NCBI RefSeq assembly: GCF_001598795.1
Contig: NZ_BCZP01000009.1
Coordinates: 210,001 to 242,000 of the forward strand
DNA length: 32,000 nt
DNA from: Delftia acidovorans NBRC 14950
GTDB lineage: Bacteria; Pseudomonadota; Gammaproteobacteria; Burkholderiales; Burkholderiaceae_C
Direction: 5' to 3'
Both the position numbers and the translations under genes were made by a program. Under the pieces are notes generated by a model that worked only from the letters and a program-made list of their open reading frames with translations, searched no databases and was not told the origin of the DNA. Positions 6,588 through 28,580 of this stretch are shown in pieces (position 1 is the first letter of the stretch; every line of letters starts with the position of its first letter).

Positions 6588-10133
<3,546 letters not shown>

Positions 10134-10146
10134 CAAGGAGGACGCG

Positions 10147-12779: not shown

Positions 12780-12814
12780 CGGCGGGAGCCGGGGGGCGCG
12801 AAAGCGCGAACGCT

Positions 12815-13183: not shown

Positions 13184-13368
13184 ATCTCTTTGTTGCAGTG
13201 CATCATGCTGCTATCAAAAAGGCAGCATTGACGAGGGCTGATCATCCACACCCTCGGGCGGCCATCGCGTAGGACAGCATGCAAACTTTTCTGCCGCCGC
13301 CTGCATGGAGGCCGAGGCTATGGATTGTGCAATACAACGAAGAACGCCAGAACAAGGCTTGCGCGCGT

Positions 13369-14184
13369 TCAGCGGGTGGAGGCCTGCGGCGGGTCCAGAA
13401 CATGCTTTTGAACGGGCAGGAATTCATCCGCCTGCCGTGAATAGTCCCAGCGCGTGAGCTCTCGGCGCCAGGCCGGGCCCTGTCCAGCCCAGTCCTCCTG
13501 CTGCTCCAGCGTGAACAGGCTGTTGGGCGCATGCGCGCGCAGCCGCAGCGATACCGCAGTGCCCGCCTGCGCCGCCCACAGTCCCGGCAGCGGCTGGACC
13601 AGGCCGGGGTCATGTCCATGGCCTGACAGCACCAACTGCGCTCCGGCGTCGCGCCAGGCCGCCAGGGCCGTTGCCGCGCGGTGCGGGCGGTGGCTGCGGT
13701 CCTGCGCATGGGCGGCGGCCAGCGGGTGGTGGCTGACCACAATGCGCCAGTCGCCGGGGCTGGCCTGCGCCAGCCTTTGGGCCACTTGCCGGATCTGGCT
13801 GGCCGACAGGCTGCCGCGCTGGTGGCGCCACCAGCGCGTGGTGTCCACGCCAATCACGCAAAAGCCCTGCTCTGCGCACCAGGGCTGCAGTTCGGCACTG
13901 ATCCAGCGGGCGTAGCGATCATGGGCATGGCCGCCCAGCCGCTCCCACCAGGCAAGCAACGGCAGATCGTGGTTGCCCGGCACAACCAGGCGGCGCGGTA
14001 CGGGAAGGGCATCGAGAAACTCGCGCGCCTGGGCAAACTGTGCGGCCGTGGCACGCTGGGTCAGGTCGCCGGAGACCACCAGCAGCGCCACGGGCAGACG
14101 TGCGGCCAGTCTTGCCGCGGCGGCGCACACGGCCGGATCGTGGGCGCCGAAATGCAGGTCCGACATATGCATGAGCAAAGCCAT
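13369..14184 (-). CDS. Calcineurin-like metallophosphoesterase
   Basis: Internal Met of track ORF 13369..14292 (MALLMHMSDLHFG). All metallophosphoesterase motifs are present in order: DLHFG, SGDLTQ, GNHD, VVSHHP, SGHGHD. Confidence 0.85.
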   Translation of the reverse strand: MALLMHMSDLHFGAHDPAVCAAAARLAARLPVALLVVSGDLTQRATAAQFAQAREFLDALPVPRRLVVPGNHDLPLLAWWERLGGHAHDRYARWISAELQPWCAEQGFCVIGVDTTRWWRHQRGSLSASQIRQVAQRLAQASPGDWRIVVSHHPLAAAHAQDRSHRPHRAATALAAWRDAGAQLVLSGHGHDPGLVQPLPGLWAAQAGTAVSLRLRAHAPNSLFTLEQQEDWAGQGPAWRRELTRWDYSRQADEFLPVQKHVLDPPQASTR

Positions 14185-14207
14185 GGGCGTTCCTTGTCCC
14201 TTGATGA

Positions 14208-15215
14208 TCAGGAGGAGGGCCCGGCCTCGCCCGGCACGATCAGCCACAGCGGCTTCTCGCCCAGGCGAAAACGAATGGGCGGGGCCATCCATTCGCGCTC
14301 GCCATCAAAGGCCACCTTCAGGCGCCGCGGGCGCCGACCTGCGGGCTCTGCCACCAGCTCGGTGCAGGCCAGGCTGGCCACCGCATCGTCCTGCGCCAGC
14401 CGTCCCAAGACGGCATTCCAGACCACGCGCGCCGGGGCCTCGCTGGCCTGTGGCAGCAGCAGCACGGCGGCCAGGTGCTGGCCGTCGGCCACGGCGCGGG
14501 CTTCGGCAATGCCCACGCGCTCCAGCTGCATCGGGTTGTTGCCTACGAACAGTGTGCTGGCCAGGTGTTCCTGCTGCTGCAGCGGCGCCTGGCGGTCGGA
14601 GCGCAGGGCGATGCGCCAGCGGCGCGCGCTGCCACCGCGAAGAATGCTCCAGATGGAGGCCGCAATGGCCACCAGCCGCGTGCGGCCAAAGCGTGTGGAC
14701 GCGCGTTCGCGTTCGTCCAGCAGGCGCGGGTACAGGCCCAGGCTGGCGTTCACCAGAAACAGCCGTTCGTTGACCAGGCCCACGTTCACGGGCCGCATCT
14801 GGCCGGCCTGCAATGCCTGAAGAATGTCCTGCACGGCCTGGGCAGGCTCCAGCGACAGCGCCTGCTCGCGGGCGAAGTAGTTGAAGGTGCCCAGCGGAAC
14901 CACGCCCATGGGCACGCCCCGCGCCCAGGCTGCGGCGGCCACCGCATTGATGGTGCCGTCACCGCCGGCGGCCACGACCAGGCCGCCATCCTGGCTGGCC
15001 CTGTCCACGGCGCGGGCGGCCAGGTGCACGATGTCGGCGCGTGCGCCAGGCACATGCCACTGAACGCTGCGCTGCTGCAGCGCGGGCACGCTGGTGAGGC
15101 GGGCGCGCAGCTGTTCCAGGTCGGCGCCTGGGCGCAGAGGCACGATCAGGTGGATGGGGCCGGCGGGGTCCAGACGGGGCGGGGGCGGCTGGCTCTCGGA
15201 ATAGGTGGGCGTCAT
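14208..15215 (-). CDS. Diacylglycerol-kinase-family lipid kinase (YegS/DAGK_cat-like)
   Basis: VVAAGGDGTINAV and PMGVVPLGTFNYFARE are hallmark DAGK catalytic-domain motifs. The gene ends 23 nt upstream of the metallophosphoesterase start on the same strand. Confidence 0.88.
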   Translation of the reverse strand: MTPTYSESQPPPPRLDPAGPIHLIVPLRPGADLEQLRARLTSVPALQQRSVQWHVPGARADIVHLAARAVDRASQDGGLVVAAGGDGTINAVAAAAWARGVPMGVVPLGTFNYFAREQALSLEPAQAVQDILQALQAGQMRPVNVGLVNERLFLVNASLGLYPRLLDERERASTRFGRTRLVAIAASIWSILRGGSARRWRIALRSDRQAPLQQQEHLASTLFVGNNPMQLERVGIAEARAVADGQHLAAVLLLPQASEAPARVVWNAVLGRLAQDDAVASLACTELVAEPAGRRPRRLKVAFDGEREWMAPPIRFRLGEKPLWLIVPGEAGPSS

Positions 15216-15372
15216 GGAAGGCGGGAGGCTGGAACAGGCGCCGATTGTTTCGTGGATTGCACCTGCATGTGCACCGGATCATGCAAGCGGCACACGTCAG
15301 CCAAAGCCGACAGGCAGGGCACCACAAGGCAGCAGTGGATCACCAGCGACTCCCTGGTGGCCCACTGGTGGC

Positions 15373-17943
15373 TCACTCGGGCCAGGGAGAGCGGTACTCC
15401 AGCATCTGCGCCAGCGGCACGGGCCGCTCGAACAGATAGCCCTGTGCATGCTCGCAGCCCAGGGCATGCAGCAGCCTGGCCTGGGCCTGCTCCTCCACGC
15501 CTTCGGCCACGACCTTGACGCCAAAGCCCTGGGCGATGCGCAGCACGGCGGTCACGATGGACTTGTCGGATTCGGACTCCGGCAACTGGCCGACGAAGCT
15601 CTGGTCGATCTTGATGCAGTCAAAGCGCAGGCGGCTGAGATAGGCCAGGGAGGAGTAGCCGGTGCCGAAGTCGTCAATGGCGATCTTCACGCCCAGCGCG
15701 CGGATGGCGGCAATGCGCTGCAGCGTGGCGTCGCTGTCGTCCAGCAGCATGGACTCCGTCAGCTCCAGGGTCAGCAACCGGGCGGGCAGGCCGCTGGTGG
15801 CCAGTGCCTGCTCCAGCGTGGAGGCGAAGTCGGACTGGATGAGCTCGCGTGCCGACATGTTGACGTGCAGCTCGAAGTCAGCAGGCAGCCGGGGCAGGTG
15901 GGAGGCGATGTCGTGCGCCGCCGTGCGCAGCACCCATTCGCCCACGCTCAGGATCAGGTCCGACTCCTCGGCCACCGGAATGAAGACGCCGGGAGGCACC
16001 ATGCCGCGCGTCGGGCTGTTCCAGCGCACCAGGGCCTCGGCGCCGACCATGCTGCCTGTGGCCAGGTCCACCACGGGCTGGTAGAACACGCGCAGCTCGT
16101 TGCGCTCCACCGCCTGGCGCAGCTCCATGGCCAGCTGCGTGCGGCCCAGCATTTTCTGCGCCAGGCTGGGCTCGAACAGCAGGAAGGGGTGCGAGCCGCG
16201 CTGCGCCTCACCCAGCGCAATGCTGGCGTTGCGCAGCCACTCGGGCAGCGCGCCCGGCAGCAGCTCGCCGCTGACGGCGCCCGCGCAGGCGCGCAGCACG
16301 ATGTCGTCCTTGCCCACGGAAAATGGCTGGTCGAAGATTTCCAGCAGGTGGCGGCATTTGTCCTGCATCTGCTGCGGCGTGCAGTCATGCAGCCACAGCA
16401 TGGCGAACTCGTTGCTGGCCGTGCGCGCCAGCAGGGCAGGAAACTGCAGATGGTGGTTACGCAGCCGCTCGGCCACGGCCCGCAGCAACTGCTCGCCCGT
16501 GCCGTGGCCCACATCGTCGCGGACGCTGCGGAAATTCTGCAGCTCCAGCAGGCACAGCGCGGCAGGGCAGGGCGTGTTGGCGGCTGCAGCCGCATCGGCC
16601 TGCTCGATCAGGCCGGCGCGCGTGAGCAGCTGCGTCAGGCTGTCGTACTGCAGCAGGGTGCGCATGTGCTCGAACGATTCCTGCAGCCGCTGCGCCATGT
16701 TGTGGAAGGCCGAAACCAGGGACGATGTCTCGACCAGGGACGTATCCGGCAGCGCCCCTACCGCGCTCCAGTCGCCCTTGGCCAGGCGGTTGGCCGCATC
16801 GGCCGTCACCGCCAGGGGGCGCAGCGCCCGGCGCAGGCACCACACGCCCAGCCCCAGTCCCAGCAAGGCCAGGCCGAAAGCGAGGACCAGCGCATGGCGG
16901 CTGTCCGCCCGCATGCTGCTGACCAGATCGGATTCGGGCTGCAGCACCAGGATCCGCCAGTCGATGCCGCGTACATCGTGGAATGCGGTGACCTGGCCGT
17001 GGTAGATCTGCCCCTGTTCCTTGAAGCTCAGGTTGATGGTGTTCTGGGGGGCCGCTGGCGCCGATGGATCCGCGCTCAGATGCGCAGGCAGCAGGGCGGC
17101 CAGGCTGCGCAGCGCAAGATCGGGGCTTTCAGACAGCCGCAGGCGCACGGGTGGGTCATAGGGGCCTTCGCGCCGCTTCAGCACCGACAGCTCGGACGAG
17201 TGCGCCACCATGTAGCCCTGTGCGTCGACCACGGCGATATGGCCGTTGCCACGCAAGGGCTCGTCGCGCAGAAAGCGGTTCATGCTGCTCAGCCGCACAT
17301 CGGCGGCCACCACGCCGGCCAGCTGGCCGGACACCCGCACTGAAGTGGATGCGGAAATCGTGGTATCGCCCCGGTCGCCAGTCACCGTGTAGATGGGCGA
17401 CCAGTGCGGGCCGTCTTTGTGGATGGCAGGCTGGTACCAGGGGCGCACGCGGGGGTCGTAGCCTGCAAGGCTGGACATGGGCGGGCCGGGCTCCAGCCCC
17501 TCGAAGATCTGCAGGGCCCCCTGGGTGCTGCGGTCCTGAAGAATCAGGCGGTAGCGGCCATCGGGCTCCAGCCGCACCCCCGTGTATTCACCTTGTACGC
17601 CGCCAAAGCTCAACAGGCTGATCTGGTGGTGCTGGGCGTACAGCTCGGTGAATGAGCGTGTCAGATAGCCATAGATGGGGCGCAGGTCGCCGGGGGTGTA
17701 GAGCGCCTGCCGGGCCACGGTCTCGGCCAGGGCCTGCTGCACGCGCAGCGGGGTCTCCAGGTAATCGGCCAATTGGTGGCGCGTGGTGGTGGACAGGGAG
17801 TCGAGCAGCCGCAGGCTTTCGCGGTTGATGAGTTGGTCCACCTGGCGCTGCTGCCATGCCGCCAATAGCCCGGCCGTGACCACGAACACCGCTATGAAGG
17901 GGGCTGTGACTGCCGTGCGAAGTGAGAGCCTGAAGGCGGGCAT
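15373..17943 (-). CDS. c-di-GMP phosphodiesterase-type signalling protein: TM - dCache - TM - HAMP - degenerate GGDEF - EAL
   Basis: Start placed at MPAFRLSLRTAVTAPFIAVFVVTAGLLA (internal Met of track ORF 15373..18144). Cache hallmark is YDPRVRPWY. The GGDEF site reads TASNEF (16405-16422). EAL-domain motifs are intact: YQPVV, GAEALVRW, ELTES, DDFGTGYSSL, KIDQSFV, AEGVE. Confidence 0.9.
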   Translation of the reverse strand: MPAFRLSLRTAVTAPFIAVFVVTAGLLAAWQQRQVDQLINRESLRLLDSLSTTTRHQLADYLETPLRVQQALAETVARQALYTPGDLRPIYGYLTRSFTELYAQHHQISLLSFGGVQGEYTGVRLEPDGRYRLILQDRSTQGALQIFEGLEPGPPMSSLAGYDPRVRPWYQPAIHKDGPHWSPIYTVTGDRGDTTISASTSVRVSGQLAGVVAADVRLSSMNRFLRDEPLRGNGHIAVVDAQGYMVAHSSELSVLKRREGPYDPPVRLRLSESPDLALRSLAALLPAHLSADPSAPAAPQNTINLSFKEQGQIYHGQVTAFHDVRGIDWRILVLQPESDLVSSMRADSRHALVLAFGLALLGLGLGVWCLRRALRPLAVTADAANRLAKGDWSAVGALPDTSLVETSSLVSAFHNMAQRLQESFEHMRTLLQYDSLTQLLTRAGLIEQADAAAAANTPCPAALCLLELQNFRSVRDDVGHGTGEQLLRAVAERLRNHHLQFPALLARTASNEFAMLWLHDCTPQQMQDKCRHLLEIFDQPFSVGKDDIVLRACAGAVSGELLPGALPEWLRNASIALGEAQRGSHPFLLFEPSLAQKMLGRTQLAMELRQAVERNELRVFYQPVVDLATGSMVGAEALVRWNSPTRGMVPPGVFIPVAEESDLILSVGEWVLRTAAHDIASHLPRLPADFELHVNMSARELIQSDFASTLEQALATSGLPARLLTLELTESMLLDDSDATLQRIAAIRALGVKIAIDDFGTGYSSLAYLSRLRFDCIKIDQSFVGQLPESESDKSIVTAVLRIAQGFGVKVVAEGVEEQAQARLLHALGCEHAQGYLFERPVPLAQMLEYRSPWPE

Positions 17944-18187
17944 GCAGAGGTTTCCGTAGCGTGCGCCGGGCAGCCAAGGGCCGGATCTGCCTGCGACAGC
18001 GGCCATTGTGCAGTGCCTTCGCAGCCCTGCGCCGCCGCCGCAGCAGTCCGCGCCTGGGCGCTCCTGTGGTTGATAGGAAAATTTGTTGATAAATGGTTTT
18101 CGGTAGAAAAAATGAATTCTTGATGGCGATTTGCCAGAACGCAAAGGCGGGCCGTGGCCTGCGCAAAGCCAGCCATTGCGCCACTCG

Positions 18188-18244
18188 GTTTACATATCCG
18201 TTTACAAATTGATCGCCATTACATGTAGACATCACATGTAATGG
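18188..18244. promoter_or_regulatory. Repeat array upstream of the psp-like operon: two GTTTACA direct repeats plus an 11-bp perfect inverted repeat
   Basis: GTTTACA occurs at 18188-18194 and 18200-18206. CCATTACATGT (18216-18226) / ACATGTAATGG (18234-18244) are separated by 7 nt and end 16 nt before ATG 18261. The TTACA core recurs four times (three direct, one inverted). Confidence 0.4.
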
Positions 18245-18446
18245 CCGCTATGGTATCCGCATGGAACAAAAGACATCAGCCCATTACCAGCGCCTGCACC
18301 GGCAACGGCTGCGCGAACAGGGGCTGGTGAAAAAGGAGGTCTGGATTCTTCCAGAGTACGGCGCGGCATTGCAGCAATTGGAAAAGCAAATGCGCGTGCC
18401 GGGATTGCAACCGGAATCAATGGTTCTCATCCACAAGGAGGGCGGC

Positions 18447-18929
18447 ATGGACAACAGCAGACAGGCATATCGGGATATTCACGCCTTGGCGGGCGATCTG
18501 CAGCAATCGGCACTGGTGCAGGGCGGCCGGCTCCATATCGAGGTGCTGGAAGGCGCAGACGCAAGTTTGCTGGTCAGCCTGCCCGAATTCGGCGATCTGC
18601 CGGTGCATGTGGCGCTCTCGGGCGACCAATTGGTGGTGGAGGCCTTTCTGTGGCCCGCCGACCAGGTGCACGACCGCGCCGGTCTCAACGAGCAGATGCT
18701 GCGCCTGCAAAAACTGTTTCCCTTCACCACGATGGCGCTGGAACCCCAGGCCCACGGCGGCGAGGGCTACGTGATGTTCGCCGCCCTGCATGCCAGCAGC
18801 AGCGAGGGCGACATCATTGCCGAGATCCTGACCCTGGCCGACAGCGTCATCCAGGCCACCGAGGCACTGGCCCACTACCTGACGCCGGTGCCCGCCCCCA
18901 CATCCGCATCCGCCCCCGCGCAGGCCTGA
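18447..18929 (+). CDS. YjfI/DUF2170-family protein (CesT/Tir-chaperone-like fold reported for this family)
   Basis: Strong SD AAGGAGG (18435-18441) lies 5 nt before ATG 18447. FGDLPVHVALSGDQLVVEAFLWPADQV...GYVMFAALHASSSEGDIIAEILTLADSVIQATEAL runs parallel to E. coli YjfI as I recall it (YGDLQINILFTSRQMIIETFICPVS...YYIVFGALSLKSSLEDILLEITSLVDNALDLAEI). The frame stays open upstream to ATG 18261 (222 aa), so the start is ambiguous. Confidence 0.78.
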   Translation: MDNSRQAYRDIHALAGDLQQSALVQGGRLHIEVLEGADASLLVSLPEFGDLPVHVALSGDQLVVEAFLWPADQVHDRAGLNEQMLRLQKLFPFTTMALEPQAHGGEGYVMFAALHASSSEGDIIAEILTLADSVIQATEALAHYLTPVPAPTSASAPAQA

Positions 18930-18970: not shown

Positions 18971-19681
18971 ATGACCATCTGGAACAAGCTGGTGACAGCG
19001 TTGCGCGGCGCCGCCCACGAGGCCGGCGAGGCGGTGACCGACAGCCAGGCCCTGCGCATCCTGGACCAGGAAATCCGCGATGCCGACAGCGACCTGAACA
19101 AGTCCAAGGAAGCGCTGGCCGACATCATGGCCAAGCAAAAGCTGGCGGCCGGCAAGCTCAAGCAGACCCAGGAACGCATTGCCGAGTACGAGGGCTATGC
19201 CGTCAAGGCGCTGGACACCAGCGACGAGGCGCTGGCGCTGGAAGTGGCCGGCAAGGTCTCCGTGCTGGAGACCCAGCGCGACGAGGAGCAATCCCAGCTG
19301 GACGCCTACACGCAAAGCGTGGAGCAGCTGCGCGTGGCCATACAGACGGCGCAAACGCATATCAAGCGCCTCAAGCAGCAGGCCGACACGGTCAAGGCCA
19401 CGGAAAGCGTGCAGCGCGCCCAGGCCACGGTGGCCGGCCGCTACGCAGGCTCGCAGACGCGCGTGCAAAGCGCGCTGGATTCTCTGGAGCGCATCAAGCA
19501 AAAGCAGGCCGAGCGCGGTGCGCGCATGGAAAGCGCGGCCGAGCTGGCGCGCGACAGCAGCGAAGACGCGCTGGATGCCAAGCTGCGCGCTGCCGGCATC
19601 ACGCCCCAGGCGGGCAATGCGCAATCGGTGCTGGAACGCCTGAAGGCGCAGCGCGCCGCAACTGGCGGAAAAAACGCTTGA
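18971..19681 (+). CDS. PspA/IM30-family protein (YjfJ-like; ESCRT-III superfamily)
   Basis: AGGAG SD lies 7 nt upstream. The protein is all-helical and 236 aa. ILDQEIRDADSDLNKSKEAL, TVKATESVQRAQATV, LERIKQKQAERGARMESAAEL and KLRAAGI...VLERLKAQR closely parallel E. coli YjfJ as remembered (MLEQHIRDAKAELDKAGKS, VVKATEAMQRAQQAV, LKRLQTRQAERQARLDAAAQL, KLAEAGI...VLARLQRQ). Confidence 0.92.
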   Translation: MTIWNKLVTALRGAAHEAGEAVTDSQALRILDQEIRDADSDLNKSKEALADIMAKQKLAAGKLKQTQERIAEYEGYAVKALDTSDEALALEVAGKVSVLETQRDEEQSQLDAYTQSVEQLRVAIQTAQTHIKRLKQQADTVKATESVQRAQATVAGRYAGSQTRVQSALDSLERIKQKQAERGARMESAAELARDSSEDALDAKLRAAGITPQAGNAQSVLERLKAQRAATGGKNA

Positions 19682-19755: not shown

Positions 19756-20424
19756 ATGTCTGCGTTCCTGCAATACGCGTTTGGCTTTCCGACTTTCATC
19801 TTTGGCGCCTTGCTGCTGTTCATGCTGCTGTACTGGCTGATCGCCATGCTGGGCCTGCTGGAGGTGGACTCGCTGGACCATTGGGTGCTGTTCGACGGCA
19901 GCGACCATGCGCACGGCGTGGAGCATTCGGTCAGCGCGCTGGCCGGGCTGCTGCTCAAGGTGGGCCTGGGTGGCATTCCGCTCACGGTCATCCTCACCGC
20001 GCTGTTCCTGATGTCCTGGCTGGCCTCGTATGTGCTGTGCCATTTCGTGCCCATGCCGCAGGGCTGGACCCTGGTGAACCTGCTGACCGGCTCCCTGGTG
20101 GCAGCGGCAGCCATGGTGCTGGGCTTTGCCGCCACCGTGCTGCTGCTGCGCCCGCTGCGGGGCATCGTCAACAAGGTGGCGCCTGCAGAGGAGCCCAAGG
20201 TGCTGCTGGGCCGAACCGGCCTGGTGCGCAGCGCCGTGGTGGACGGCACGCAGGGCTACGGCAGTGTCGAGGACGGCGGCGCGGGCCTGAACGTGCAGAT
20301 GCGCTCGCCCGAGCGCGCACTGGGCCGGGGCACCGAGATCGTGCTCATCGAGCACCTGCCCGAGCACAACGCCTGGCGCGTGGTCAGCAAGGCCGAGTTC
20401 GACGGCACCGAGCTGCCGCGCTAG
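19756..20424 (+). CDS. YqiJ/DUF1449-like inner-membrane protein with NfeD-like C-terminal OB segment
   Basis: GGGGAGGGGAG SD. Several TM helices are present (FPTFIFGALLLFMLLYWLIAMLGLL, IPLTVILTALFLMSWLASYVL, LLTGSLVAAAAMVLGFAATVLLL). The soluble tail is GRTGLVRSAVVDGTQGYGSVEDGGAGLNVQMRS...GTEIVLIEHLPEHNAWRVV. It sits immediately upstream of a flotillin gene, as with E. coli yqiJ-yqiK. Confidence 0.8.
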   Translation: MSAFLQYAFGFPTFIFGALLLFMLLYWLIAMLGLLEVDSLDHWVLFDGSDHAHGVEHSVSALAGLLLKVGLGGIPLTVILTALFLMSWLASYVLCHFVPMPQGWTLVNLLTGSLVAAAAMVLGFAATVLLLRPLRGIVNKVAPAEEPKVLLGRTGLVRSAVVDGTQGYGSVEDGGAGLNVQMRSPERALGRGTEIVLIEHLPEHNAWRVVSKAEFDGTELPR

Positions 20425-20522: not shown

Positions 20523-22598
20523 ATGAACATGAGCAACATGGAGTGGTACATCGTCGCCGGGGTGGTGATCGGTTCCGTCTTCGTCGTCATCCTCGGGCTG
20601 TTCGCCCTGGTCAAGGCCTTCTACATCAAGGTTCCACAGGGCACGGCGCTGATCATCAACGACACCACGTCGCAGCCCAAGGTCAAGTTCACGGGCGGCC
20701 TGGTGCTGCCGGTGATCCACAAGAAGGAGTTCATGCAGATCTCGCTGCTGACGCTGGAGATCGACCGGCGCGGCAAGGAAGGCCTGATCTGCCGCGACAA
20801 CATGCGCGCCGACATCACCGTGGCCTTCTACCTGCGCGTCAATGAAACGGCGGAAGACGTGCTCAAGGTGGCCAAGGCCATCGGCGTGGACCGGGCCTCG
20901 GACAAGACGGCCGTCAACGAGCTGTTCAACGCCAAGTTCTCCGAGGCGCTCAAGACCGTGGGCAAGCAGATCGAGTTCGTCAAGCTGTTCGAGAACCGCC
21001 AGGATTTCCGCGACCAGATCATCCATGTCATCGGCAACGACCTCAACGGCTATGTGCTGGAAGACGTGGCCATCGACTACCTGGAGCAGACGCCCAAGTC
21101 CTCGCTGGACCCCAACAACATCCTGGATGCCGAGGGCATCCGCAAGATCACCGAGCTGACGGCCAACCAGAACATCGTCACCAACGAGCTCGAGCGCAAC
21201 TCCGACCTGGCCATCACCAAGAAGAACGTGGAGACCAAGGAAGCCATGCTGGCGCTGGAGCGCCAGCAGGCCGATGCCGAGGCGCGCCAAAAGCGCGAGA
21301 TCGCCACCATCCAGGCGCGCGAGCAGGCCGAAACCCAGAAGGTGCAGGAGGAAGAGCGCCTGAAGGCCGAGCAGGCGCGCATCCAGACCCAGGAGCAACT
21401 GGACATCCGTGAGGAAAACCGCCAGCGCGAAGTGGCCGTGGCCCAGCAAAACCGTGAGCGTGCCGTGGTGATCGAGGTCGAGAAGGTCACGCGCGCCAAG
21501 GAGCTGGAGATCGTGGCCCGTCAGCGCGAGGTGGAGCTGCAGCGCATCGAGAAGGAAAAGGCCATCGAGGTCGAGAAGGCCAACATCGCCAACGTGGTGC
21601 GCGAGCGCGTGGTGGTGGAAAAGTCCGTGGCCCAGGAAGAGGAACGCATCAAGGAAGTGCGCGTGGTCTCCGAGGCCGAGCGCATGAAGCAGGTCACCGT
21701 GCTGACTGCCCAGGCCCAGGCCGAGGAAGACATGGTGCGCCAGGTCAAGAAGGCCGAGGCCGAAGAGGCTTCCTCGCGCCACAAGGCCGTGGAAGTCACG
21801 ACCATGGCCCAGGCCGAGCTGGAAGCGGCCAGCAAGACCGCCGAAGCGAAGAAGAAGCTGGCCGAGGCCATCGAGGTCGAGCGCGCCGCGCCCGGCCTGG
21901 CCGATGCCAAGGTGCGCGAAGTCACCGCCGCCGCCCTGGAAAAGGAAGGCCTGGCCCAGGCCCGCGTGATTGCCGAGAAGCTGATGGCCGAAGCCAAGGG
22001 CCATCAGGAAAAGGGCCTGGCCGAGGCGCGCGTCATCGAGGCCACGGCCGACGCCAACGAAAAGCAGGGCCTGGCCGATGCCAAGGTGCTGGAAGAGCGC
22101 CTGCTGGCCCAGGCGCGCGGCGAAGCCCAGGTGGGCGCCACCAAGGCCACGGTCACGCGCGACGTGGGCATGTCCGAGGCCGATGTGCTGCGCGACAAGC
22201 TCTTCGCCGAGGCCAAGGGCCTGACCGAGAAGTTCACCGCGCTGGCCTCGCTGTCCGACCAGGCGCGCTCGCATGAGGAGTTCCGCATGCAGCTGGAGAA
22301 GAACTTCGAGCAGGCGCTGGCCGCCATCGAAGCCAACAAGAGCGTGGCCAAGGACCAGTCCGAGGTGCTGTCGGCCGCACTCAGCAAGGCCAACATCGAC
22401 ATCGTGGGTGGCGAGGGAGCCTTCTTCGACAACTTCGCCAAGGCGCTGTCCGTGGGCAAGGCCGTGGAAGGCGTGGCGGGCAAGAGCCCCATCGTGCAGG
22501 ACCTGATCAGCAAGTTCCTCAGCGGCAAGGGCGGCGCATCGCTGCTGAACGCGCTGGGCGACGGCAAGGGCCTGCCGCCCACGCAGAGGGTCGACTGA
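20523..22598 (+). CDS. Flotillin-family SPFH/Band-7 protein (YqiK-like), 691 aa
   Basis: GGGGAG SD. N-terminal TM is WYIVAGVVIGSVFVVILGLFALV. The SPFH core includes YIKVPQGTALIINDTTS...LVLPVIHKKEFMQISLLTLEI...DNMRADITVAFYLRV. A long Glu/Ala/Lys/Arg/Gln-rich coiled-coil (EA-repeat) region follows, with four GLA(D/Q/E)A(K/R)V repeats. Confidence 0.93.
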   Translation: MNMSNMEWYIVAGVVIGSVFVVILGLFALVKAFYIKVPQGTALIINDTTSQPKVKFTGGLVLPVIHKKEFMQISLLTLEIDRRGKEGLICRDNMRADITVAFYLRVNETAEDVLKVAKAIGVDRASDKTAVNELFNAKFSEALKTVGKQIEFVKLFENRQDFRDQIIHVIGNDLNGYVLEDVAIDYLEQTPKSSLDPNNILDAEGIRKITELTANQNIVTNELERNSDLAITKKNVETKEAMLALERQQADAEARQKREIATIQAREQAETQKVQEEERLKAEQARIQTQEQLDIREENRQREVAVAQQNRERAVVIEVEKVTRAKELEIVARQREVELQRIEKEKAIEVEKANIANVVRERVVVEKSVAQEEERIKEVRVVSEAERMKQVTVLTAQAQAEEDMVRQVKKAEAEEASSRHKAVEVTTMAQAELEAASKTAEAKKKLAEAIEVERAAPGLADAKVREVTAAALEKEGLAQARVIAEKLMAEAKGHQEKGLAEARVIEATADANEKQGLADAKVLEERLLAQARGEAQVGATKATVTRDVGMSEADVLRDKLFAEAKGLTEKFTALASLSDQARSHEEFRMQLEKNFEQALAAIEANKSVAKDQSEVLSAALSKANIDIVGGEGAFFDNFAKALSVGKAVEGVAGKSPIVQDLISKFLSGKGGASLLNALGDGKGLPPTQRVD

Positions 22599-22701: not shown

Positions 22702-25700
22702 ATGGTCCCTGACACGCGAAAGCCCGTGACGCCCATGTCCCAACCGTCCCCATCGTCTTCACAGTCCCTGTCCCCCGACACCGCGGCCTCCGCCGTGGAC
22801 CAGGCAGTCGCCAGCGGCGGCTCCTACGAAGTGCTGGCCAAGCGCCTTGACGGCCAGGGGCAGGCGCTGGAGACGCTGGCACGCCAGCTCAACGAGGAGC
22901 GGCTGGAGGAATTCGGCCGCAGCCAGATGGAAGTCATCGGGCGCATGCGCGTGCGCACCGAAAACAACTGCCTGGGCCGCGACATCGCCCAGGTCGGCGG
23001 CTACCTGCTGTTTGGCTACAACGTCTTCATGGGTCTGAAGCAGTCCACGCGCGTGGAGGACGTGTTCGTGCTGTACCGCCTGCACGAGGGACAGCAGGGC
23101 TACGAGGTCACGCCGGTCGATCTCAAGGACAGCTTTCTGGGCATACAGAGCTTCGTGCAGGACTTCCAGGAGCTGTACGCCTACTACAAGAACACCCGGC
23201 TGATGCAGCTGGCCGTGCGCGACGGCAAGCTGCTGGCGAGCTTTCAGATTGGCGAGCGCCTGTCCGATGTGCGCGTATTCCGCTGGTCCGTGCCCGTCGA
23301 TGGCCAGCCCATCCGCTACATAGACAACCGGGGCGAGCGCGATATCGAGCTGCCCGCACCGCATGACTTCGAGTGGCAGCGCGCCGGGCGCGAGCAGCTG
23401 GTGCAGGGGCGCCACCCGCACATCAACGTGCTGGACGGGGTCTTCGTCGAGACCCTGGGCGGCACGCTGACCATCAAGGTCGAGAACAACACCAACGACG
23501 GACTGGGCATCTACAGCGAGCCCGTGCAGGAGAAGAACCAGTCGCTGGACGACGCCGTGTTCGAGTACGCGGCCGTGGGCAGCCTGATCCTGCTGAAGAT
23601 CCTGCCCTACCGCGAAGAGCAGTGGCGCTACCTGATCTTCAACACCCTGTCGCGCCAGGTGCTGCGCATGGACGCCATCGGCGCGGCCTGCATCCAGCTG
23701 CCGCAGGACCACGGCATCATCTTCCCCGGCGGCTACTACCTGCAAAGCGGCGAGAACCGCTCGTTCGAGCAGAACATGCAGGGCATGCGCTACCGGCGCA
23801 GCATCCGCTCGCCCAACGGCGAGGATGTGCTCTACGTGTTCTACGAGCCCGAGAGCGGGCGCATGGCGCTGTTCAAGTACAACCTGATCGAGCGCGCCCT
23901 GCAGCCGCCCATCATCGGCCACGGCTATGCGCGCATGGACGACGGGCGCGTCGTCATCTTCGCGGCCGAGAGCAACGAGGCCTCGCGCGTGCACCCCATG
24001 CAGGTCTGGCGCACGCCCTTCGCCTCGGACGACTATGCGGCACGCCAGCCGCAGCGCGACAGCTTCCTGGGCCGCATCGGCAATGCCGAACTGGTCAGCG
24101 GCATCTCCGACCTGTACAGCGTGCGCAAGGAAATCGCGGCCACCGAGGTCTCGCTGCCGCGCTACGAGCGCCTGATCGACGCCGCGCGCCGCCTGTTCGA
24201 GCGCTACCACTGGCTGGGCGCGCCGCAGCTCAAGGGCGTGCACGAGACCCTGCTGGGCATTGTCGCCACGGGTGATGCGGTCATCGACGAGTACGAAAAG
24301 GTCGAGAGCATCCGCAACGCCTCGGCCAAGGCCATGGGCGAGGTTTCCAGCCGCCACGGCCAGTTGCTCAAGACACTGCGGCTGGCCGACTGGAAAAGCA
24401 TTGGCGAGTACGTGGACGCGCTCACCCAGCTGGGCCAGTTGCGCGGCCAGCTCATGGCCACGCGCGACCTGCGCTATGTGGACCAGGCCGCCATCGACAC
24501 CATGGTGCAGGGCGTCAACGAGGCCCAGGCCGAAGTCTCCCAGCGCACGGCCGCCTTCATTGCCACCGACGAGGCCATGCAGCCCTATGCCGATCAGCTG
24601 CAGGCACTGGACCAGGCCGCGCAGGCGGCAGCCACGGTGGCGCAGATCAACGAGCCGCTGGCGCGCATGGCCGACATGGCGGCTGCGCTGGACATGCTGT
24701 CCGAGCTCATGGGCAGCCTGTCCATCGACGACGCCACGCAGCGCACCCAGGTGGTGGATCGCATCTCGGCCGTCTACGCGCGCCTGAACCAGGTGCGTGC
24801 ACGCGCCGAGCAGCGCCGGTCTGGCCTGGGCGGCGCCGAGAACGTGGCCCAGTTCGCCGCCCAGCTGGCGCTGTTCTCGCAAAGCATCGTCAGCGCCCTG
24901 GGCCTGGCGCAGACGCCCGAGAAATGCGACGAGCAGCTGGCGCGCCTGCTGGTGCAGCTGGAGGAAATCGAAAGCCGCTTCGGCGAGCACGAGCAGTTCC
25001 TCGGCGACATCATGGCCAAGCGCGAGGAGGTGCTGGAGAGCTTCGAGGCGCGCCGCCAGTCGCTGCAGGACGAGCGCCAGCGCAAGGCGCAGGGCGTGCT
25101 GGACGCGGCGCTGCGCATCGTGCAGAGCCTGCCCAAGCGCACCGAGAAACTGGCCAGTGCCGACGCGCTGCATGCGTTCTTTGCAGGCGATCCGCTGATC
25201 GGCAAGCTCAAGGAGCTGGCCCAGCGCCTGCGCGAGCAACTGCATGACCCGGTCAAGGCCGACGACATCGACGGCCGCGTCAAGAACCTGCGCGACCAGG
25301 CGTTTCGCGCGCTGCAGGACCGCACCGAGCTGTACGAAGGCGACGGCGCCATCATTCGCCTGGGCCGCCACCGCTTCAGCGTGGGCAACCAGGAGCTGGA
25401 CCTGACCCTGCTGCCGCGCAACGGCGAACTGTTCCTGCATCTGGTCGGCACCGAGTATTTCGAGCCCATGGACAACCCGGAGCTGGCCGCCCTGCAGGCC
25501 TACTGGGATGCCTCCACGCCGGCCGAATCGCCGCAGTTCTACCGGGGCGAATACCTGGCGCTGGAAGTGGTGCTGGCTGCGCGCCAGCGCCGTGACGGCT
25601 GGAGCGAGGCCCGGCTGGCCCAGTTGCTGCCCGACGAGGCGGCGCTGACCCAGGCCATCCGCGAATTCTCCGCGCCGCGCTACCGCGAAGGCTATGAGCG

Positions 25701-28323
25701 CGGCATCCACGACCATGATGCGGCCCGCATCCTGCAGGTGCTGCTGCCCCTGCGCGATGCTGCTGGCGTGCTGCGCTTTGCGCCCGACGCCCGTGCGCTG
25801 GCCCTGCTGTTCTGGAGCGCACAGGCCCAGGTGCAGCAGCCGCAGCTGGCTGCCGCCATGGCGCAGTGGCCGCTGCGCGCCCAGCAGGCCCAGGCCATGC
25901 AGCAGATGTTCGGCAGCGAGGCCGAACAGCTGAGCCTGCGCACCGACATCTCCGAGCGCCTGCGCGCCTATGCCGAAGAACGGGGCCTGCTGCGCGACCT
26001 GCTGCCAGGACAGGCGGCGCCCGCAGACAGCGATATCGACAGCCTGATCCACGGCGCCGCCGACTACCTGCAGGCCGAGCTGGCGCAAAAGGCCGTGCGC
26101 TTTTCCTTCTCCAGCTACAGCCAGTCGGCCATTGCCGCGCTGCAGGCTGCCGTGCAGCAGCAGGCCCAGCCGCTGCAGCGCTGGGAAGAAATGCAGGCCT
26201 ACTGGCAGGGCGAGGACCGGCGCGACAAGGCCGTGGCGCCGCTGGACCAGCGCTGGCGCAGCGCGCTGCACTGGCTGCAGACCGCCTGCCGCGCGCTGGA
26301 CGACGGGCAAGGGCAGGCCTGGCTGGCCTATTGCGGCGAGGCCGCCGCCTGGCTGTGCTGTGCCGGCCAGTTGCCGTGCAAGGTCAGCAGCGTGGACCTG
26401 CGCCACGAAGTGCCGGGCCTGCTGGGCCAGCATCCGCGCATTGCGGACGGCCGCATGTGGCTGCAGATCGACGACCTGGGCCAGCGCGCCGCGCGCCATT
26501 TCCGTACCTTTGTTCCCGAATTCGGCCGCTACCAGGCGCTGCGCCAGCAGCTGCTGCAGGAGTGGCGCTCGCGCGTGCGGGTGGAGGAATTCAAGGCCCG
26601 GCCGCTGTCGTCCTTTGTGCGCAACCGGCTCATCAACGAGATCTACCTGCCCGTGATCGGCGACAACCTGGCCAAGCAGATCGGCGTGGCCGGCGAGAAC
26701 AAGCGCACCGACCAGATGGGCCTGCTGATGATGATCTCGCCGCCCGGCTACGGCAAGACCACGCTGATGGAGTACGTGGCCAACCGGCTGGGCTTGATCT
26801 TCATGAAGATCAACGGCCCGGCGCTGGGCCACTCCGTGCGCTCGCTGGACCCGGCCCAGGCGCCGGACGCCACGGCGGCCAAGGAGCTGGAAAAGCTTAA
26901 CCTGGCGCTGGAGATGGCCAACAACGTGATGCTGTACATCGACGACATACAGCACACGCACCCCGAGTTCCTGCAGAAATTCATCTCGCTGTCGGACGGC
27001 ACGCGCCGCATCGAGGGCGTGTGGAAGGGCCAGACCCGCACCCACGACATGCGCGGCAAGCGCTTTTGCGTGGTCATGTCGGGCAATCCGTACACCGAGT
27101 CGGGGGAGGTCTTCAAGATCCCCGACATGCTGGCCAACCGTGCCGACATCTACAACCTGGGCGATGTGCTGGGCGGCATGCAGGAGGTGTTCAAGCTCAG
27201 CTACATCGAAAACAGCATGACCTCGAACGCCGTGCTGGCGCCGATGGCCACGCGCAGCCTGCAGGACCTGTACCTGCTGCTGGACAAGGCGCAGGGCCGT
27301 GAGGTCTCGGGCAATGCGCTGTCGCACGACTACTCATCGGCCGAGCTGCGCGAGATCGAGGCCGTGCTGGCCCGCATGGTGCAGGTGCGCGAGCTGGTGT
27401 TCAAGGTCAACCAGCAGTACATCCAGAGCGCCGCGCAGGACGACGGCTACCGCACCGAGCCGGCCTTCCGGCTGCAGGGCAGCTACCGCAACATGAACAA
27501 GCTGGCCGAGAAGATCACGCCCGTGATGAACGACCAGGAAATGCAGCAGATGCTGGCCGACCACTACCAGGGCGAAGCGCAGATGCTGACCACGGGCGCC
27601 GAGGAGAACCTGCTCAAGCTCGCCGAGCTGCGCGGGCAGATGAGCGACGAGGACAGCGCCCGCTGGCAGCAGATACGCCAGCAGTTCCTGCGCCGCCAGG
27701 CTGCAGGCGGCGCCAATGCCGACGCCGCCACGCGCGTGACGGCGCAGCTGGTCGACCTGGTCGCCGCTACGCGCGAGGTGGCCCAGTCGGTGTCCCAGTC
27801 CCAGCAGCAGGCGATGCAGGAAGGCGCCGCCGACCAGGCCCACGCATCGGCAGCGGCCGCGCACGCCGCCGCCAGGGACGCTGACCAATCCCAGACGCTA
27901 CAGGCGCTTCAGACTCTGCTGGCGCGGCTGCTGCAAACCCAAAGTGCTGCAGGCGACTCGCTGCACGGCATACGCGAGCTGATGGCGCAAAGGGCGGCCA
28001 GCGAGCCCGTCGGCACCCAGGCCAGCACCCTTTCGGAGGTACAGGCCGCCCAGGAACGTCAGGCCCTGGTCCACATGCTGGGCCAACTGCTGACCCGGTC
28101 GCTGACCCAGTCCCTGGAGCCCGTGGTCACGCACCTGGACCAGGCCCGCCGCCAGCAGCTGGGCCTGCACCGCGTGCTGATGCAGGTGGCCACGCGCATG
28201 CAGGAGCAGATCGACGCCCAGCGCGCGGGCCGTCCCGTGCCGGCTGCGGGCGCCATACGCTCCGAGGAAATCGACAAGGCCTTCGAGCGCATGCAGCGCG
28301 GCGACGTGCCGCCTGCGGCCTAG
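22702..28323 (+). CDS. Giant (1873 aa) uncharacterised protein with a single MoxR/dynein-type AAA+ ATPase module
   Basis: GGAGGG SD (22691-22696) lies 5 nt before the ATG. Walker A is SPPGYGKTT (26737-26763) and Walker B is MLYIDD (26929-26946). A sensor/arginine region follows: VVMSGNPYTESGEVFKIPDMLANRADIY. The remainder is a beta-rich-looking N-terminal about 400 aa plus roughly 1100 aa of helical Ala/Gln/Leu/Arg-rich sequence. No TM or signal peptide is evident. Confidence 0.9.
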   Translation: MVPDTRKPVTPMSQPSPSSSQSLSPDTAASAVDQAVASGGSYEVLAKRLDGQGQALETLARQLNEERLEEFGRSQMEVIGRMRVRTENNCLGRDIAQVGGYLLFGYNVFMGLKQSTRVEDVFVLYRLHEGQQGYEVTPVDLKDSFLGIQSFVQDFQELYAYYKNTRLMQLAVRDGKLLASFQIGERLSDVRVFRWSVPVDGQPIRYIDNRGERDIELPAPHDFEWQRAGREQLVQGRHPHINVLDGVFVETLGGTLTIKVENNTNDGLGIYSEPVQEKNQSLDDAVFEYAAVGSLILLKILPYREEQWRYLIFNTLSRQVLRMDAIGAACIQLPQDHGIIFPGGYYLQSGENRSFEQNMQGMRYRRSIRSPNGEDVLYVFYEPESGRMALFKYNLIERALQPPIIGHGYARMDDGRVVIFAAESNEASRVHPMQVWRTPFASDDYAARQPQRDSFLGRIGNAELVSGISDLYSVRKEIAATEVSLPRYERLIDAARRLFERYHWLGAPQLKGVHETLLGIVATGDAVIDEYEKVESIRNASAKAMGEVSSRHGQLLKTLRLADWKSIGEYVDALTQLGQLRGQLMATRDLRYVDQAAIDTMVQGVNEAQAEVSQRTAAFIATDEAMQPYADQLQALDQAAQAAATVAQINEPLARMADMAAALDMLSELMGSLSIDDATQRTQVVDRISAVYARLNQVRARAEQRRSGLGGAENVAQFAAQLALFSQSIVSALGLAQTPEKCDEQLARLLVQLEEIESRFGEHEQFLGDIMAKREEVLESFEARRQSLQDERQRKAQGVLDAALRIVQSLPKRTEKLASADALHAFFAGDPLIGKLKELAQRLREQLHDPVKADDIDGRVKNLRDQAFRALQDRTELYEGDGAIIRLGRHRFSVGNQELDLTLLPRNGELFLHLVGTEYFEPMDNPELAALQAYWDASTPAESPQFYRGEYLALEVVLAARQRRDGWSEARLAQLLPDEAALTQAIREFSAPRYREGYERGIHDHDAARILQVLLPLRDAAGVLRFAPDARALALLFWSAQAQVQQPQLAAAMAQWPLRAQQAQAMQQMFGSEAEQLSLRTDISERLRAYAEERGLLRDLLPGQAAPADSDIDSLIHGAADYLQAELAQKAVRFSFSSYSQSAIAALQAAVQQQAQPLQRWEEMQAYWQGEDRRDKAVAPLDQRWRSALHWLQTACRALDDGQGQAWLAYCGEAAAWLCCAGQLPCKVSSVDLRHEVPGLLGQHPRIADGRMWLQIDDLGQRAARHFRTFVPEFGRYQALRQQLLQEWRSRVRVEEFKARPLSSFVRNRLINEIYLPVIGDNLAKQIGVAGENKRTDQMGLLMMISPPGYGKTTLMEYVANRLGLIFMKINGPALGHSVRSLDPAQAPDATAAKELEKLNLALEMANNVMLYIDDIQHTHPEFLQKFISLSDGTRRIEGVWKGQTRTHDMRGKRFCVVMSGNPYTESGEVFKIPDMLANRADIYNLGDVLGGMQEVFKLSYIENSMTSNAVLAPMATRSLQDLYLLLDKAQGREVSGNALSHDYSSAELREIEAVLARMVQVRELVFKVNQQYIQSAAQDDGYRTEPAFRLQGSYRNMNKLAEKITPVMNDQEMQQMLADHYQGEAQMLTTGAEENLLKLAELRGQMSDEDSARWQQIRQQFLRRQAAGGANADAATRVTAQLVDLVAATREVAQSVSQSQQQAMQEGAADQAHASAAAAHAAARDADQSQTLQALQTLLARLLQTQSAAGDSLHGIRELMAQRAASEPVGTQASTLSEVQAAQERQALVHMLGQLLTRSLTQSLEPVVTHLDQARRQQLGLHRVLMQVATRMQEQIDAQRAGRPVPAAGAIRSEEIDKAFERMQRGDVPPAA

Positions 28324-28580
28324 GCCCATCGCTGGGGCAAAGCCGGGACAAAGCCGGGGCAGGGCACATCGGCAAAGGCTGGGGCGCCTTGCTGGCGCTG
28401 CCTTTGCATGGGCCGGGGGCCCTCGCACGTCTGCATGCGCTGATCCGTCATCGGACAACCCGATGTCCCGGACGTTGGACCATCACCTACAACCCGAGAC
28501 GCGTCCCGAACCGATGCTTGGAGCGGCGTGTTCGCAGCAGTGTGCACGCCCCACGAACGAGCCAACACGATGGACGCCCC

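Follow-up and report, generated by a model that had tools for sequence, protein, structure and literature searches.

In Pseudomonas aeruginosa, bacA to bacF were shown by reverse transcription PCR (RT-PCR) to be co-transcribed, and in a bacA mutant BacB, C, D, E and F accumulate 6–13-fold; BacA regulates the operon negatively (Wallart et al., 2024, PMC10948618). BacD of this operon (PA14_16180) has been classed as the SPFH protein PaFlo3 and BacC (PA14_16160) as a short NfeD protein (PMC13086221), and the genes PA3728–PA3732 are induced by phage infection (PMC12041424). By comparative genomics, Ravi et al. have already described the architecture and operon class of the ATPase family that includes BacE, and have linked the ATPase to PspA/band-7 membrane dynamics (Ravi et al., 2024, PMC11237479). 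We found no dedicated study of DUF3686, DUF7902, PF12458 or PA14_16190 in the literature. Here we examined 32,000 nucleotides of Delftia acidovorans NBRC 14950 (contig NZ_BCZP01000009.1, positions 210,001 to 242,000 of the forward strand), referred to as the window, in which the last gene of a bacABCDE operon encodes a protein of 1873 aa that we identify, by sequence, as the Delftia orthologue of BacE.

22702..28323, + strand: bacE-like gene, 1873 aa, with DUF3686, DUF7902 and an AAA+ module (open reading frame translation, Pfam, P. aeruginosa orthologue PA3728/PA14_16190)

This open reading frame (ORF) runs through 1873 open, stop-free codons, and a Shine-Dalgarno-like run, GGGGAGGG, lies 5 nt 5′ of its ATG. 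Since most homologues begin aligning at M12 of the Delftia protein, the start could be at 22735 instead. A Pfam scan placed PF12458 (DUF3686) on aa 56–503, covering positions 2–448 of the 448 in the profile (E = 8.1e-205), and PF25472 (DUF7902) on aa 624–707 (E = 1.8e-28). The protein is 60% identical to P. aeruginosa PA3728 (P0074) over ~90% of its length, and 96–97% identical to its counterparts in loci L004 and L009 (D. acidovorans, D. tsuruhatensis). An antisense ORF of 1522 aa (22759–27327, − strand) overlaps the gene; it is unsupported and typical of high-GC DNA, and shadow ORFs of this kind overlap most genes of the window. We ruled it out as coding because the DUF3686 match (PF12458, E 8e-205) and thousands of full-length homologues place the coding sequence on the + strand.

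An initial annotation, made from the letters of the window alone, had reported no transmembrane helix, signal peptide, nuclease or protease in the protein, and this held up: we found neither a transmembrane helix (the top Kyte-Doolittle 19-mer average was 1.51) nor a signal peptide, and scans with Pfam, NCBIfam and PADLOC revealed no second catalytic domain. It was also right that one enzymatic module lies far from the N terminus, and right in the domain order that it gave. It overstated the case in calling the protein unusual, as the family numbers >6300 homologues (1329 clusters at 50% identity, several phyla) and already had Pfam models and a gene name, bacE (PMC10948618), while its architecture and operon context were in print (PMC11237479). 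New here are the order of the parts (propeller, then helices), the AAA_5/MoxR-like assignment of the ATPase, its Asp-Asp Walker B, the frequencies of linkage to neighbouring genes, and paralogues that lack the AAA+ module.

We modelled the protein with AlphaFold2 (AF2) in two parts, aa 1–1100 (mean predicted local distance difference test score, pLDDT, 84.1) and aa 1041–1873 (mean pLDDT 82.8), using alignments of 76–78 homologues with identity down to ~27%; we judged the number of blades, the packing of the helices and the helix-2 insert from the predicted secondary-structure strings. N-terminal to the ATPase, the following parts were delimited:

22702..22866, + strand: Ser/Pro-rich, poorly conserved N terminus, aa 1–55 (composition, conservation, pLDDT)
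22930..24012, + strand: predicted beta-propeller, aa 77–437 (AF2 pLDDT mostly >90, Foldseek, inside DUF3686)
24028..25329, + strand: fixed-length helical scaffold, aa 443–876 (AF2 pLDDT 70–96, PF25472, anchor spacing)
24571–24822: DUF7902, aa 624–707, within the helical scaffold (PF25472)
25351..25470, + strand: small beta domain, aa 884–923, RLGRHRFSVGNQELDLTLLPRNGELFLHLVGTEYFEP (five predicted strands)
25477..26577, + strand: second helical domain, aa 926–1292 (AF2, conservation profile)

The Ser/Pro-rich N terminus and the beta-rich head (roughly aa 80–470) of the initial annotation were both recovered. The first 55 residues consist of 18% Ser, 13% Ala and 11% Pro and are poorly conserved (identity 0.36, gaps 33%); aa 1–27 are predicted to be disordered (pLDDT 31–46), and a long predicted helix, aa 25–71, leads into the propeller. 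Between aa 77 and 437 the model contains ~28 strands that fall into seven sets of roughly four each, which we read as a predicted seven-bladed beta-propeller. Foldseek matched this region, with probability ~1.0, to the clathrin terminal domain, Vps18, EED, paraoxonase and IFT-A, and Ravi et al. describe "beta-propeller repeats" in the same ATPase family (PMC11237479).

The region that follows (aa 480–1290) had been taken for one helical spacer. It is indeed helical and rich in Ala, Leu, Gln and Arg (15.5, 12.7, 9.9 and 8.8%, respectively), but it falls into three structured domains. The first is predicted to consist of 14 helices of up to 54 residues each, joined by short loops, and its length is nearly fixed: among 77 homologues, with identity down to 27%, the distances between invariant anchor residues in the stretch from W436 to G888 vary by only 0–4 residues, while G582–D677 and D677–E757 measure exactly 95 and exactly 80 residues in every one. 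Conservation over aa 650–900 (0.64–0.76) is on par with that of the propeller. The small beta domain carries the invariant residues G888, F892 and T917, and the second helical domain, which includes a few short strands and the most variable internal stretch of the protein (aa ~1050–1200), ends in a long helix (1256–1292) that runs into the ATPase. Length variation among the 77 homologues is restricted to aa 917–998, to the stretch from aa 1031 to Walker A (261–350 residues) and to the tail. Such spacing is compatible with a fixed-geometry element, as in the ruler or lever arm that the initial annotation had suggested, and fits an ordinary folded domain equally. A hidden, degenerate second AAA+ domain in the helical region was considered and rejected, being absent from the predicted secondary structure, and sequence searches returned no solved structure related to aa 1–1300.

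The ATPase and the tail were delimited as follows:

26611..27168, + strand: AAA+ alpha/beta core, aa 1304–1489 (AF2 topology, Foldseek, AAA_5 match, invariant residues)
26737–26763, + strand: Walker A, SPPGYGKTT, aa 1346–1354 (motif)
26926–26955, + strand: Walker B, VMLYIDDIQH, aa 1409–1418, Asp-Asp and not Asp-Glu (motif)
27004–27048, + strand: pre-sensor-1 beta-hairpin, aa 1435–1449 (AF2 strands 1436–1441 and 1444–1449)
within the AAA+ core, + strand: sensor-1 N1462 (invariance)
27121–27147, + strand: candidate Arg finger R1480 in PDMLANRAD (invariance)
27181..27702, + strand: AAA+ lid and conserved helical extension, aa 1494–1667 (AF2 pLDDT 86–97, conservation 0.67–0.75)
27475–27501, + strand: candidate sensor-2 R1596 in QGSYRNMNK (invariance)
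27724..28320, + strand: variable Gln/Ala-rich C-terminal tail, aa 1675–1873 (pLDDT 41–78, conservation)

The P-loop module, which the initial annotation had put at aa 1300–1530, is single, 60 residues separating Walker A from Walker B within the same core, which includes an N-linker helix (AF2); it is larger than was thought, the lid and its extension reaching ~1667. The ~340-aa tail claimed in the same annotation has the composition described (Ala 16.8%, Gln 13.8%), but its first ~130 aa belong to the conserved lid, leaving a variable tail of ~200 residues with identity of 0.11–0.29, ~50% gaps and long helices predicted at low confidence. Across the family, the distance from Walker A to the C terminus ranges from 339 to 520 aa.

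All 76 sequences share seven residues of the module (K1352, D1414, D1415, N1462, R1480, R1584 and R1596), and Walker B reads DD[IVL]QH, with Asp-Asp and never Asp-Glu, in 111 of the 112 cluster representatives of at least 1500 aa. Asp-Asp Walker B motifs of the IDDIQ type are known from DnaA, a slow, switch-type ATPase, and hydrolysis by BacE may, speculatively, be slow as well. The pre-sensor-1 hairpin, which is conserved in sequence and separates the Walker B helix from the sensor-1 strand (AF2, 76 sequences), has an aromatic residue at its tip in 74 of 76 sequences (W1441 in Delftia), followed by x-Gly in 75 of 76; in the classification of AAA+ proteins, this hairpin is a hallmark of the superclade to which the MoxR/AAA_5 group belongs. 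The loop after beta2, KINGPALGH...DP (aa 1369–1389), is nearly invariant, and the 18 conserved residues at aa 1372–1389 join beta2 to alpha2 with no inserted hairpin predicted there in the AF2 secondary-structure strings. The conservation of these pore-side loops suggests that a polypeptide substrate is engaged.

The AAA+ fold was predicted with pLDDT ~90, and its Foldseek matches comprised RuvB (E 7e-6), the MoxR-type proteins CbbQ2 (6l1q, TMt 0.64) and NorQ (9qh4, TMt 0.63), ClpB/Skd3 and MCM. When we scanned the isolated AAA+ segments of seven diverse members, Pfam AAA_5 spanned positions 2–127 of 139 at 24–30 bits (cut-off 22) in 7 of 7, while PF00004 reached only positions 2–72 of 131 in 6 of 7; in the whole-protein scan of BacE, AAA_5 scored 21.5 bits, just under its cut-off of 22. 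AAA_3, the Pfam model for MoxR proper, gave no match above noise in the BacE AAA+ module, and comparison with solved structures by sequence, also with the full-length family profile against the PDB, returned P-loop matches only. No VWA-domain partner was found among the window neighbours or in the annotated loci. Judged from the model and these profiles, the core is of the AAA_5/MoxR-like type; this assignment is new here, as are the pre-sensor-1 hairpin that the core carries and its invariant Asp-Asp Walker B.

We ruled out that the ORF is a fusion artefact or a gene that is normally split. N-terminal and ATPase motifs share one ORF in 96 loci, and two more full-length ORFs had been missed by the motif pattern (~98 of 105 loci in all); orthologues are not consistently split, and 111 of 112 cluster representatives of at least 1500 aa (median length 1650 aa) carry the ATPase motifs SPPGYGKTT and DD[IVL]QH. 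The non-fused exceptions were three AAA-less paralogues, one apparently frameshifted copy and three ORFs ending <100 nt from a contig end. In the apparently frameshifted copy (L018, Alkalisalibacterium limincola), bacE occupies two overlapping ORFs, 9902–12430 and 11665–15276, which reflects a true frameshift, possibly in a pseudogene, or else an error in sequencing. The AAA-less paralogues (L021 10001–13123, L028 8001–11147 and L029 637–3783; P0310 and P0311 are among them) come from Bacteroidota, are 1040–1048 aa long, carry DUF3686 and DUF7902 only, and stop at a position equal to BacE aa ~1040–1050. They have a conserved synteny of their own, with a 96-aa gene, a thioredoxin-like gene and a gene for a Por_Secre_tail protein, and neither flotillin, PspA nor an ATPase was found near them. 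Because the first ~1040 aa also exist as a stand-alone protein, the propeller-scaffold arm is an autonomous module.

In the Delftia window, bacE is preceded by the other genes of its operon:

18261..18929, + strand: bacA, DUF2170 (CesT/Tir-like), with an extra ~60-aa basic N terminus (PF09938 E 1.5e-45)
18971..19681, + strand: bacB, PspA/IM30 of the ESCRT-III superfamily (PF04012 E 9e-49)
19756..20424, + strand: bacC, 222 aa, three N-terminal transmembrane segments, YqiJ/NfeD-like (sequence; homologue in L025 with PF21001 YqiJ_N)
20523..22598, + strand: bacD, 691-aa flotillin-like protein with a transmembrane segment, SPFH domain and long coiled coil (weak NCBIfam FloT match, P. aeruginosa homologue)

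The bacA product scored 238 bits against the NCBIfam BacA model, under the cut-off of 300. Pfam gave no match to BacC or BacD of the window even at E = 1, and BacD gave none to the PDB by sequence; their identities rest on homologues and on the literature, Delftia BacD being 77% identical to the PA14_16180 homologue of P. aeruginosa encoded in L024. As the third gene of the operon, a 269-aa ORF starting with TTG and overlapping bacC was rejected in favour of the 222-aa ORF with three transmembrane segments.

Every one of the 18 related genome loci whose flanks were long enough keeps the order bacA-B-C-D-E. A further 80 loci (42–97% identity) came from a metagenome scan, and their neighbours were called with jackhmmer profiles of the operon proteins; the counts below use loci with enough flank and, since the sample includes close relatives, are not counts of independent events.

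Flotillin-like gene ≤3.5 kb 5′ of bacE (usually <150 nt): 84 of 88 loci
BacC: 69 of 72 loci
PspA: 43 of 72 loci
DUF2170: 39 of 72 loci
PLD-family gene 3′ of bacE: 10 of 86 loci

The ranking of linkage is clear, with flotillin and NfeD about equal, then PspA, then PLD. From these counts, the constant core consists of the NfeD-like protein, flotillin and BacE, with PspA and CesT as a frequent add-on, in qualitative agreement with Ravi et al. (PMC11237479), and the link to PspA and flotillin proposed in the initial annotation was apt. Some loci without PspA encode only flotillin, YqiJ and the ATPase, as do the abbreviated operons of Ravi et al. The gene order extends to Bacteroidota and Planctomycetota. 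A Sphingobacterium locus has the order CesT_Tir, PspA, DUF4177, 227 aa, 703 aa, BacE, and a Planctomycetota metagenome-assembled genome (MAG) has PspA, PspA, YqiJ_N, 662 aa, BacE.

Several loci showed peculiarities of their own. In a Comamonas MAG (L013, 7587–9820), genes for a DctP-type solute-binding protein and a luciferase-like monooxygenase stand between bacD and bacE, the only bacD-bacE junction interrupted among close relatives. In another MAG (L026, 13230–17162), a DUF4178, DUF350 and spermine-synthase cluster directly follows the bacE operon; this combination is another of the PspA-linked systems of Ravi et al. (PMC11237479). A TelA-family gene follows bacE in L023 (15001–16221), and bacF of P. 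aeruginosa encodes a 230-aa PLD-family protein (PLDc_2, HKD; L024, 13260–13952).

It is highly probable, in our judgement, that BacE belongs functionally to the flotillin/NfeD membrane module. We put forward more tentatively, with slightly less than even confidence, that it is an ATP-driven remodeller or recycler of the flotillin/NfeD scaffold, often coupled to PspA. BacC (three transmembrane segments, NfeD/YqiJ-like) and BacD (SPFH) would build this scaffold at the cytoplasmic face of the inner membrane, and PspA (BacB, ESCRT-III superfamily) and the CesT-like BacA would join the module in many lineages. BacE would provide the energy: its AAA_5/MoxR-like domain most likely forms a ring, as in MoxR, RuvB and other AAA+ relatives, from which a rigid arm of ~1300 residues per subunit would dock on the flotillin and/or PspA lattice, so that ATP binding and hydrolysis could remodel, extract or recycle polymer subunits. 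Remodelling may use the pore-side loops, namely the aromatic-x-Gly hairpin tip and the beta2-alpha2 loop. The evidence shows the anatomy (as a prediction), the invariance of the motifs and the linkage of the genes, together with the published co-transcription and co-regulation in P. aeruginosa; we infer ring formation, partner identity, docking of the propeller on BacD and/or BacB, subunit extraction and the direction of the reaction, and we predict flotillin, not PspA, to be the primary partner. So described, BacE would correspond in function to Vps4, which acts on ESCRT-III, or to the remodelling chaperones of the MoxR type; it is not a relative of Vps4. A bolder version, which we regard as rather unlikely, has a ring ATPase with six coat-like arms take apart or reshape flotillin cages and PspA polymers, so filling the role of Vps4 in archaea and eukaryotes with an unrelated MoxR-type Asp-Asp motor.

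Several observations weigh against a remodelling ATPase of this kind. The Asp-Asp Walker B, being family-wide, may mean slow, switch-like hydrolysis and not a processive motor. The VWA partner usual for MoxR relatives was found neither in the window nor in the annotated loci. Four of the 88 loci carry bacE without a nearby operon partner: these metagenomic loci (L047, L055, L093 and L101) have a full-length bacE among unrelated genes (AIM24, an M48 peptidase and HipA in L055), and their available flanks contain neither a flotillin gene nor one for an NfeD-like protein or PspA. PspA is not an obligatory substrate, because it is missing from ~40% of loci. The paFlo3 (bacD) mutant of P. aeruginosa shows a mild biofilm phenotype only (PMC13086221), and the inter-domain geometry of our models is uncertain (predicted template modelling score, pTM, 0.54–0.56).

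The alternative that survives best, though we consider it improbable, would make BacE a disassembly ATPase specific to PspA and a stand-in for Vps4, with the arm recognising PspA, the ring pulling its subunits out, and flotillin serving only as a platform. PspA is encoded in the window operon and in 43 of 72 loci, and the Planctomycetota module comes after two PspA genes. Reviews describe bacteria as having no Vps4-like ATPase for PspA (PMC7619361), which leaves the role vacant. Yet ~40% of loci lack PspA, whereas 95% have the flotillin gene, and BacE has no MIT-like domain and a core that is AAA_5/MoxR-like, outside the classical clade of Vps4.

The Foldseek results for the arm raise a second alternative, in which BacE is a coat-like scaffold on membrane marked by flotillin or PspA and its ATPase a nucleotide switch for assembly; the layout of propeller and helices is reminiscent of clathrin, IFT-A, nucleoporins and HOPS. 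The top matches of the N-terminal 1100 aa were propeller-plus-helical proteins, namely IFT-A (E 7e-8 and 7e-7), a nuclear-pore scaffold (E 6e-6), the clathrin terminal domain with its linker (E 7e-5) and Vps18; the family-wide Asp-Asp Walker B has its parallel in the DnaA switch, and the arm also exists without an ATPase. These matches have template modelling (TM)-scores of 0.05–0.3, so that the resemblance is local or architectural only, and any propeller yields such matches. Helices of up to 54 residues are also unlike short solenoid repeats, and all the other hydrolysis residues are invariant. We rate this alternative as decidedly unlikely.

There is a slim chance that BacE is instead an unfoldase in the quality control of membrane proteins in a flotillin microdomain, comparable to FtsH in its HflK/C cage, with a protease encoded elsewhere. 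HflK/C-FtsH provides a precedent for an SPFH cage combined with an AAA+ protein (PMC13220708), the conserved pore-side loops suggest polypeptide engagement, and an M48 peptidase gene lies beside bacE in the solo locus L055. This neighbour occurs in one locus only, however; a protease domain was found neither in BacE nor in the conserved operon, and BacE has no transmembrane anchor.

That the operon serves in defence against phages, BacE acting as sensor or motor, is very improbable. Induction of PA3728–PA3732 by phage (PMC12041424) and the PLD-family gene, a common defence effector fold, that follows bacE in 10 of 86 loci would speak for it, but such induction is expected of an envelope stress response of the phage-shock type, and the operon keeps its synteny and its vertical conservation from one family to another, not being placed in variable islands. 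PADLOC models matched none of BacE, BacA, BacC and BacD, the PspA match being coiled-coil noise.

Although homologues are named "DNA repair ATPase" or "DNA repair protein", the Pfam text for DUF3686 reads "ATPase involved in DNA repair", RuvB had the best Foldseek E-value, and recJ of P. aeruginosa lies ~1.4 kb 3′ of bacE (past bacF, the PLD-family gene directly after bacE, and a yaeQ-like gene), a role in DNA repair is scarcely credible and was rejected, given that the DUF3686 region is a predicted propeller without a nucleotide-binding motif, that the likeness to RuvB goes no further than the generic AAA+ core and, in sequence, than the P-loop (NCBIfam RuvB models 20–22 bits against cut-offs of 282–299), that Pfam and NCBIfam scans found no SMC_N, Rad50, SbcC head, nuclease or DNA-binding domain, the remaining signal being coiled-coil noise, and that the conserved neighbours all encode membrane proteins, with recJ and PLD genes missing both in the window and in the majority of loci. 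The name probably arose through coiled-coil matches to COGs of the SbcC/SMC type, and the doubt that the initial annotation cast on it was justified, as the region that bears the label contains no ATPase.

Returning to BacE as a remodeller of the flotillin/NfeD scaffold, the protein bears on two questions of bacterial membrane biology, namely the disassembly or regulation of PspA/Vipp1 polymers and that of flotillin cages. Being conserved, cytoplasmic and, by sequence, apparently catalytically competent, it is an obvious candidate for the disassembly of flotillin and PspA, because it is linked to a flotillin gene in ~95% of the sampled loci and to PspA in ~60%, and it offers the best available handle on how these bacterial assemblies are powered. 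In P. aeruginosa, the bac operon influences virulence and the formation of biofilms, and it reacts to infection by phage. The present analysis provides a corrected annotation (not DNA repair), domain boundaries for constructs, and residues for point mutants (K1352, D1415, R1480, W1441).

Upstream of the Delftia operon, we found a candidate operator:

18215..18245 (also 18226–18254), no strand: perfect inverted repeat GCCATTACATGT-N7-ACATGTAATGGC with 12-nt arms, candidate operator (sequence scan)

The repeat overlaps a sigma-70-like promoter, 16 nt before the bacA start. The region upstream of bacA was compared among L001–L016, L018, L020 and L024: the exact operator pattern was not found in the loci, but a looser scripted comparison yielded two T[TC]ACATGT[AG]A boxes kept 5′ of bacA from Comamonadaceae to Xanthomonadales and P. 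aeruginosa, with Alkalisalibacterium and Thiopseudomonas among the carriers. The basic N terminus of BacA, AHYQRLHRQRLREQGLVKKEVWILP, gave a sub-threshold match to the MazE-like family PF11455 (E 0.045). Taken together, the inverted repeat, the conserved boxes and this weakly matching N terminus suggest a role for BacA as a DNA-binding autorepressor, in keeping with the raised levels of Bac proteins in the P. aeruginosa bacA mutant. A sigma-54 promoter, as proposed for P. aeruginosa, had no match within 2 mismatches 5′ of Delftia bacA.

Divergent from the operon, at 15373–18144 (− strand), lies a gene for a 923-aa sensor with dCache, HAMP, GGDEF and EAL domains, and the presence of a c-di-GMP enzyme beside a "biofilm-associated cluster" may be more than coincidence. 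On its other side, bacE is followed by an unrelated cluster of Fer2/FAD_binding_5 (aldehyde-oxidase-like) oxidoreductase genes, and the PLD-family gene bacF is not present in the window. A site resembling a sigma-54-type promoter, TGGCGCTGCCTTTGCA, with one mismatch to TGGCAC-N5-TTGCW, lies between bacE and these oxidoreductase genes (28393–28408); matches of this kind in the whole window did not exceed the number expected by chance.

Compared with known systems, BacE resembles membrane-coat proteins (clathrin heavy chain, IFT-A, the nuclear pore and Vps18) in its predicted layout, where a propeller at the N terminus precedes a long all-helical stretch, but the TM-scores are very low, its helices are long where theirs form short solenoid repeats, and sequence similarity is lacking, which makes the likeness a lead and not a sign of membership. 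Like FtsH with HflK/C, it is an AAA+ protein paired with an SPFH oligomer and an NfeD-type partner; unlike FtsH, of which it is only a remote AAA+ relative, it has no transmembrane segment and no protease domain. With Vps4 and ESCRT-III it has in common that an AAA+ protein is encoded beside a member of the ESCRT-III superfamily, here PspA, and is implicated in membrane remodelling, while it differs in its AAA+ clade, in that no MIT domain was found, in matching PF00004 over the first half only, and in having PspA as an optional neighbour. The MoxR family (CbbQ, NorQ, RavA) provides the best whole-domain structural matches, the end-to-end AAA_5 match and the pre-sensor-1 hairpin, and we take the spacing from sensor-1 to the Arg to be MoxR-like as well. 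BacE is not a member of that family in the strict sense, however: it has Asp-Asp where MoxR proteins have Asp-Glu in Walker B, an N-terminal extension of 1300 aa and a tail of ~200 aa, and no VWA partner was found. AAA_3 does not rise above noise, and a helix-2 insert is not evident in the predicted secondary structure. The closest counterpart is BacE of P. aeruginosa. The Delftia protein is longer than this orthologue by 127 aa, located in the variable 1050–1200 stretch and the Gln/Ala tail, and its operon differs from bacABCDEF in having no bacF and no sigma-54 consensus found 5′ of bacA; the two proteins are nonetheless 60% identical, share the same Pfam architecture and are encoded in the same order, bacA-bacB-bacC-bacD-bacE, and they belong to the same family and the same operon class as the ATPases described by Ravi et al. 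(2024, PMC11237479).

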